A DNA stretch of 64,000 bases from Escherichia phage WPEC6, in the sequence record PV763039.1; one strand, 5' to 3'. The position numbers were made by a program, and so were the translations under genes. Positions 51,006-51,113 of this stretch are shown here, in pieces; positions within the stretch are counted from its first letter, which is position 1, and every line of letters starts with the position of its first letter. Below the pieces are notes generated by a model. That model was given only the letters and a program-made list of their open reading frames with translations, was not told where the DNA came from and did not search any database.

Positions 51006-51113
51006 GGAATGAGAAGAGTTCTCATGTGGAAATGCAAATGAGAATGATTCGCATTTAAGTTTATAAATGAGATTGATTCTTATTCAATAAGGTAAATGAT
51101 AATCATTCTCATT
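51006..51113. promoter_or_regulatory. Array of four 19-bp palindromic operators resembling Fur boxes
   Basis: AATGAGAAgAgTTCTCAT, AATGAGAATgATTCgCATT, AATGAGATTgATTCTtATT, AATGATAATcATTCTCATT; consensus AATGAGAAT-N-ATTCTCATT, close to the Fur box GATAATGATAATCATTATC. Confidence 0.5.

Follow-up and report, generated by a model that had tools for sequence, protein, structure and literature searches.

The 64,000-nucleotide stretch of DNA analysed here (the window) belongs to a Phapecoctavirus, a phAPEC8-like virulent E. coli myovirus of the Stephanstirmvirinae whose nearest records are WPEC1, WPEC2 and WPEC4. It contains six sites that, judged by sequence, are of the grade of genuine Fur boxes: with a matrix built from E. 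coli Fur sites they score 20.5–27.7 bits (27.7, 27.5, 23.4, 21.3, 20.7 and 20.5). Our preferred reading, to which we give a probability of about 0.55, is that host Fur bound in cis at the borders of the early region would act as an iron-dependent gate or roadblock on transcription by the host polymerase. Fur binding itself is the firmer part of this proposal.

Fur boxes are textbook elements, and host-regulator sites are already known from some phages. What appears to be new is the occurrence of top-grade predicted Fur-box arrays at early-region borders and in terminal repeats across several families of virulent enterobacterial phages. Within the literature open to search, we came across no description of Fur-box arrays in virulent coliphages, nor of such boxes in the T5 stop region. 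Should Fur bind, the host's iron state would be sensed directly by several large groups of virulent Enterobacterales phages, among them the therapy-relevant phAPEC8-, rV5- and PVP-SE1-like phages, and the response would bear on their performance in iron-starved infection sites.

Fur-type sites in the window

Searching the window for AATGAGAATNATTCTCATT with at most three mismatches returns exactly six matches (51008, 51037, 51066, 51095, 63747 and 63926), against 0.09 expected in shuffled sequence. The first four are 19-bp palindromes that follow each other at an exact period of 29 bp, start to start. A preliminary description of this DNA had reported four adjacent palindromes within about 110 bp, one of them exact, and both statements hold, the copy at 51095 being AATGATAATCATTCTCATT exactly. 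The span that it gave for the array, 51006–51113, starts 2 nt early, as the first box begins at 51008. Its two further copies, at 63747 and 63926, are present; they are not the only ones, since matrix scoring adds a site at 62934 (20.7 bits) and weaker ones at 63181, 63444 and 63698 (14.3–14.9 bits). A search with the 7-1-7 core TGAKAATNATTMTCA (at most two mismatches) gives 10 matches in the window versus 1.9 expected, nine of them within two clusters; the looser 7-1-7 search gains 62936, 62996 and 63510. At 51031, 51089 and 63920 there are satellites displaced by 6 bp from a box (12.9–16.6 bits). Such overlapping sites, a trait of Fur hexamer arrays, are present both at the window array and at 63920.

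The sites and the terminal repeat are as follows (all without strand assignment).

51008–51026: Fur-type box 1, weak, AATGAGAAGAGTTCTCATG; 11.4 bits with the E. coli Fur matrix
51031: satellite overlapping box 2, 6 bp upstream of it; 12.9 bits
51037–51055: Fur-type box 2, AATGAGAATGATTCGCATT; 21.3 bits, 29 bp from box 1
51066–51084: Fur-type box 3, AATGAGATTGATTCTTATT; 20.5 bits
51095–51113: Fur-type box 4, AATGATAATCATTCTCATT; 27.5 bits, with an overlapping satellite at 51089
62934–62952: Fur-type box, AATGATAACCATTATCATC; 20.7 bits, in the ~1.2-kb non-coding stretch ahead of the terminal repeat
63673–64000: direct terminal repeat, right-hand copy; 96% alignment to the first 328 bp of phage Schickermooser
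63747–63765: Fur-type box within the terminal repeat, AATAATAATCATTCTCATA; 23.4 bits
63920–63944: strongest Fur-type box, at 63926, AATGATAATTATTCTCATT, with the overlapping site at 63920; 27.7 and 16.6 bits

Match to bacterial Fur boxes

The matrix is symmetric (9-1-9) and was derived from 17 promoter regions of well-established Fur-regulated genes, namely plasmid-borne iucA and 16 E. coli K-12 promoters. Its seed had the 9-1-9 form with position ±4 left undetermined, and only 17 sites underlie it. We take the sites that it picks to be the footprinted Fur boxes. The 17 native sites score 12.3–25.8 bits (10.4–25.2 when each is left out in turn), and individual values compare with published information-theory values as follows (matrix/published): ryhB 25.8/25.2, exbB 18.7/19.1, oppA 21.5/21.5 and fiu 17.6/17.2.

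Over the window the score has a mean of -19.4 and a standard deviation of 8.7, and six sites reach at least 20 bits where composition-matched random sequence would give ~0.04. In ~143 kb of E. coli DNA outside Fur promoters, no site reaches 17 bits. Box 4 (27.5 bits) outscores all 17 native training sites, and the box at 63747, AATAATAATCATTCTCATA, is one base apart from the E. coli ryhB box, AATAATAATCATTCTCATT. Scoring with a Fur weight matrix had been proposed as a check in the preliminary description; it places the phage sites at or above native boxes and far above background.

The same description had remarked that the half-site carries G instead of T. This shift is real: G stands at position -4 in ~52% of phage half-sites versus 18% (6/34) of native E. 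coli half-sites. The phage boxes also favour C or G at the centre, unlike E. coli boxes, and the two biases together could reflect either a different binder or a tuned affinity. The shift to G is not disqualifying, as it is found in the iucA box, in the Xanthomonas consensus and in sites ahead of bacterial iron-uptake genes. The iucA Fur box includes AATGAGAATCATT, so G at -4 is present in a footprinted E. coli box; upstream of iucA, at a distance of 20 bp, is the aerobactin box GATAATGAGAATCATTATT. In another organism, Xanthomonas campestris, the Fur-box consensus AATGAgAATcATTctCATT, from sites upstream of TonB-dependent receptor genes, is identical to the phage palindrome (Blanvillain et al. 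2007, PMC1790865). At least 120 bacterial species have the exact palindrome. The 140 genes flanking it (within 350 bp) are enriched for iron-uptake genes and fur itself, with 11 TonB-receptor Plug domains, nine ferric-type (FbpA-type) and six ZnuA-type binding proteins, six FeoB, six FUR and three FTR1.

The window boxes thus share with the E. coli boxes of iucA, ryhB, fhuA and fecI (the 9-1-9 or 7-1-7 reading of GATAATGATAATCATTATC) a 19-bp inverted repeat with the core TGA(T/G)AAT-N-ATT(A/C)TCA, and like them they have overlapping partners at 6-bp offsets. They differ in layout. The phage boxes are not seen over a gene's -35 and -10 elements, and, unlike E. coli operators, the array has four non-overlapping boxes with a 29-bp period, placed, as are the other boxes, at early-region borders and in the terminal repeat of a virulent phage.

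Genome ends and assembly

Schickermooser is a complete relative of 151,194 bp in which the first 329 bp equal the last 329 bp; its terminal repeat was published as 328 bp (PMC6563267). The records of WPEC1, WPEC2, WPEC4 and ESCO37 terminate at window position 64000 or no more than ~75 bases from it. Since 63673–64000 is the terminal repeat, the boxes at 63747 and 63926 stand at both ends of the packaged DNA, and the strongest box, at 63926, lies 56 bp from the genome end. This location had not been recognized in the preliminary description, which saw the boxes as bracketing a repeat-rich block of small genes.

That block is an assembly artefact. The region 51802–58264, with patches to ~60.7 kb, is pieced together from fragments of ~77 and ~152 bp, at 97–99% identity and in both orientations, that were copied from five distant genome positions. 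It yields 508 non-trivial self-matches versus 0 in the equivalent Schickermooser block, and WPEC-type records measure 155–161 kb versus ~150 kb in relatives. A read-length misassembly of the source record almost certainly gave rise to the repeat-rich block, whose open reading frames and hairpins are not real. The genuine block in Schickermooser spans ~12 kb and has roughly 40 small plus-strand genes. A large terminal repeat of T5 type spanning the block was ruled out, the repeat being only 329 bp. Rfam searches matched only plant microRNA models; the source of these matches is long inverted repeats, which result from the misassembly. The array region (51001–51801) and the terminal region (62713–64000) are colinear with well-assembled relatives at 94–96% identity, so the array and the terminal 1.3 kb are sound.

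Conservation in related phages

All nine Schickermooser sites of at least 18 bits lie in only three non-coding places: the array (137137–137213), the kilobase before the repeat (150186 and 150433) and both copies of the terminal repeat. The window box at 62934 is kept at 150186, and those at 63747 and 63926 recur at both ends (75 and 150940, and 254 and 151119, respectively). The equivalent of box 1 scores 14.7–14.9 bits in tuntematon and Schickermooser; in an IMG/VR relative (L151) its counterpart, shifted out of register by 1 nt, reaches 27.5 bits.

Box 4 has a fixed position, -39, relative to a conserved 16-mer anchor, CGGTGTTTGTCTCGCG. A box at this position is seen in Phapecoctavirus, Justusliebigvirus, PVP-SE1, an Erwinia phage and Salmonella phage R7, and the number of boxes further upstream ranges by lineage from none to about five. 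Scanning IMG/VR with the 16-nt anchor gave 17 loci, about half of them chance matches without Fur sites. The divergent L151 retains the motif and the 29-bp phasing; its spacers are identical at 11/30 positions versus 49/76 for the boxes. Boxes kept while spacers drift are the signature of selection on the boxes. Overall, the boxes recur in rV5-like, PVP-SE1-like and T5-like phages.

Several records labelled 'Campylobacter phage' or 'Acinetobacter phage' (B15, A110a and ABPW7) are near-identical to E. coli Phapeco-, Justusliebig- and Vequintaviruses, and these host labels look wrong.

Boxes shared with T5-like phages

In the first 45 kb of the T5-like phage EASG3, sites of at least 20 bits occur only at 232, 9204, 9561, 9665, 9700 and 9706. 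The boxes at 9204, 9561/9567, 9665/9671 and 9700/9706 (20.8–25.7 bits) lie in Repeat Region 3 within the left terminal repeat (LTR), with 6-bp-offset double boxes at 9561/9567 and 9665/9671. A 55-nt module of two boxes and their spacer is 85% identical between window 51030–51084 and EASG3 9664–9718, and the unusual GAGATTGATTCT variant of box 3, with its spacer, is also found in EASG3 at 9700. Two more non-coding elements are common to the window and EASG3 (90–93% identity), and several boxes are 90–95% identical. The same comparison against 33 kb of control T5-like DNA gave nothing below E = 0.01.

T5 Repeat Region 3 is a candidate injection stop signal, and the shear point of first-step transfer maps there. 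The function of its palindromes (palC–palJ) has been described as "impossible to guess", and Fur is not mentioned in the T5 paper that describes them. That these palindromes score as strong Fur boxes would offer a testable handle on an old open question. Both the T5 region (palC–palJ, DRC/DRE) and the window array are long non-coding regions with the same boxes, ~8–9% from a genome end and beside pre-early or early genes. In T5 the boxes are interleaved with pairs of DnaA boxes and nine DRD repeats in a 10-kb repeat, unlike the window, which is without DnaA boxes and has a repeat of only 329 bp. The T5-like clusters lie between convergent units, an arrangement that fits a boundary role and not simple promoter repression.

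The T5-like inverted repeats IRC/IRD have a weaker Fur-like box, AGTGAGAACCACTATCATT (16.4 bits), that abuts paired DnaA boxes (L142 5625–5680 and L006 1290–1400, both T5-like). The injection-stop candidates thus have Fur-type boxes and DnaA boxes interspersed with each other. Palindromes of the form TTAGC-NN-GCTAA also adjoin Fur boxes, at 1075–1140 in L006 and at ~1488 in L004 (FFH2, rV5-like).

Candidate binder

Host Fur is the simplest and the likely binder of the palindromes, because these phages have no detected Fur homologue and no neighbouring DNA-binding gene. With E. coli Fur as the query, no homologue was found in any Phapecoctavirus, rV5-like or T5-like record, and none of the ten neighbouring proteins has a DNA-binding Pfam domain, most phage proteins being of unknown function. 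The preliminary description had left the choice between host Fur and a phage-encoded repressor with a Fur-like operator. The Fur-grade sequence supports the former; the latter is disfavoured by the want of a Fur homologue and of an adjoining DNA-binding domain.

In our estimate it is quite improbable that a dimeric DNA-binding protein encoded by the phage uses the boxes as operators and recognizes a Fur-like sequence by coincidence. The preference for G at -4 and the C/G bias at the centre relative to E. coli Fur sites would suit such a protein, and most neighbouring genes are without known function. However, the host Fur matrix fits the phage sites better than the host's own, the sequence is that of a Fur operator across bacteria, and no Fur-family gene was found in these phages. 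The boxes are also common to families of siphoviruses and myoviruses in which no shared protein was detected over the region compared: the comparison of the T5-like LTR with Phapecoctavirus (first 45 kb of a T5-like genome) gave none.

Proposed mechanism and alternatives

The array lies in a ~1.2-kb non-coding stretch downstream of a plus-strand operon; a NADAR-domain gene and a terminator close this operon at 50567. Each box cluster has this setting: a terminator-like hairpin (62701–62719 ahead of the box at 62934), a ~1.2-kb non-coding gap and then small plus-strand early genes. We infer a Fur gate or roadblock from this placement of each cluster after a terminator and before early genes. 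The palindromes would be sites for host Fur that the phage has taken over as cis-acting elements. Metal-loaded Fur dimers would occupy the four array boxes, where a spacing of 29 bp centre to centre would set successive dimers about a quarter turn apart on the helix, and dimers would likewise sit on the boxes that precede or lie within the terminal repeat. Bound Fur may then gate or block host RNA polymerase as it enters or crosses the early-region borders, so coupling early phage expression to the iron status of the cell.

The weak point of this reading is that no promoter is tied to any box. The usual layout of Fur repression, a convincing sigma-70 promoter over the box, was not found at any box. 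Promoter overlap is limited to weak consensus matches, such as minus-strand 63961–63933, and none is kept across lineages. About 700 bp separate the array from the first real gene on its right, and this gene has a promoter of its own.

Lytic cyanophages carry sites for host nutrient regulators, in the form of PhoB 'pho boxes' and NtcA sites. There too a virulent phage has operators for a host nutrient sensor, and its expression tracks host nutrient status. In cyanophages, auxiliary metabolic genes that can be identified have these sites in their promoters; for the boxes described here no regulated gene was recognized, and the nutrient sensed would be iron.

An architectural role is rather unlikely in our view. 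Fur, alone or with other host proteins, would build a nucleoprotein complex that acts on DNA, and this complex could mark a point where genome entry halts or pauses (as at the T5 injection stop), could help terminase at the terminal repeat, or could serve as an origin. Placement argues for it: the 329-bp repeat holds two strong boxes, at distances of 56 bp from the right end and of 75 and 254 bp from the left, and the Schickermooser array lies 14.1 kb (9.3%) from the right end, compared with 9.2–9.7 kb (~8%) for the T5-like boxes. A similar genome fraction could be coincidence, however. The two-box module that is 85% identical to the T5-like LTR, with the two further shared non-coding elements, also speaks for this role. 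Vequintavirinae are daunorubicin-sensitive, as are the T5-likes, in which (for Bas33) the block falls after first-step transfer; this is a weak link. Two-step entry has never been reported for these myoviruses. As for an origin, the four palindromic repeats beside AT-rich repeats resemble that of lambda, whose iterons are likewise four ~19-bp repeats with internal symmetry next to an AT-rich segment. The lambda iterons are phage-specific and lie inside the initiator gene, whereas the window repeats are a host Fur motif, intergenic and common to unrelated phages, and no lambda-like initiator or DNA-binding domain was found among the neighbours of the array. No DnaA boxes (TTWTNCACA) occur from 44.7 kb to the end of the window, unlike in T5, and an origin with DnaA boxes near the array was rejected. 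T5 origins themselves were mapped near the genome centre. To our knowledge, Fur has no role in replication, packaging or DNA entry.

Replicating genomes could instead act as a Fur sponge, each with ~10 strong boxes that titrate Fur and derepress the host iron-uptake regulon, so that iron becomes available for the phage ribonucleotide reductases. This would be a natural counterpart of the Fur titration assay; we consider it improbable. The ingredients are at hand: each genome has ~9 sites of at least 18 bits, several with overlapping satellites, and the phage encodes class Ia and class III ribonucleotide reductases. Multicopy Fur boxes do titrate Fur in E. coli, which has ~5,000–10,000 copies of Fur per cell. 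A sponge would work without fixed positions or phasing and without sites at block borders and in the terminal repeat, yet these features are conserved, and the time window of the lytic cycle is short. T5 degrades host DNA within minutes, and derepression of host genes therefore cannot be the purpose there.

A further proposal is a long shot: host Fur may be the missing factor of an entry or early-switch signal common to T5-like siphoviruses and rV5/phAPEC8-like myoviruses. The cluster ~8–9% from the end would mark a pause in DNA transfer or the transition from pre-early to early expression, and host iron status would gate the release. Phapecoctaviruses would then deliver their terminal host-takeover genes first, as T5 does.

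Elements adjoining the array

The sequence next to the array contains the following elements.

50786–50995, no strand assigned: AT-rich stretch with two 72-nt direct repeats (82% identity, 138 bp apart), directly left of the array
51114–51345, no strand assigned: GC-rich conserved non-coding element right of the array, conserved to the PVP-SE1-like R7
51116–51124, no strand assigned: additional half-site, GAGAATGAC, which makes up an inverted repeat together with the right half of box 4
51342–51370, minus strand: near-consensus sigma-70 promoter-like site, TTGACA-17-TATACT (11/12 matches), directed toward the array

Analogous AT-rich repeats precede the boxes in alia and FFH2. The half-site at 51116–51124 forms with box 4 a hairpin that was scored as terminator-like on the minus strand, and its AGAAT is kept in all aligned lineages. 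For the conserved element (51114–51345), protein coding was rejected, as close relatives differ by 1-nt indels and the Schickermooser record notes a frameshift. A structured RNA was likewise rejected: RNAalifold gave positive (penalizing) covariation terms on both strands, with no convincing compensatory pairs. In FFH2 the arrangement of a Fur box followed by the GC-rich module is present twice.

Within the conserved element, a perfect GTAAA-N5-GTAAA tandem on the minus strand (51218–51232) is the sole occurrence in the 64 kb. PVP-SE1-like phages, Justusliebig phages and Repeat Region 1 of the T5-like LTR retain the tandem, with N5 varying (counterparts at L142 5046–5060 and L005 187–201). It is the CpxR-type consensus and may be a second host-regulator site.

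A TTGACA equivalent of the promoter-like site at 51342–51370 is visible in FFH2 and is not kept in R7. An 87-aa minus-strand ORF (51373–51636; PHROG 19316, of unknown function), annotated in tuntematon and alia, ends at this promoter-like site (51370–51342); other annotators place a frameshifted plus-strand ORF at 51373–51636.

Further right, TAATATTTACCACGTAGGGCGGCAATG (51768–51794) combines a -10-like hexamer with a conserved leader and corresponds to the phAPEC8 'PHIRE promoter'. The element recurs before several early genes and is 93% identical to 4986–5012 of L142, in Repeat Region 1 of the T5-like LTR. From this similarity, an early-promoter architecture seems to be common to Phapecoctavirus and the unrelated T5-like phages.
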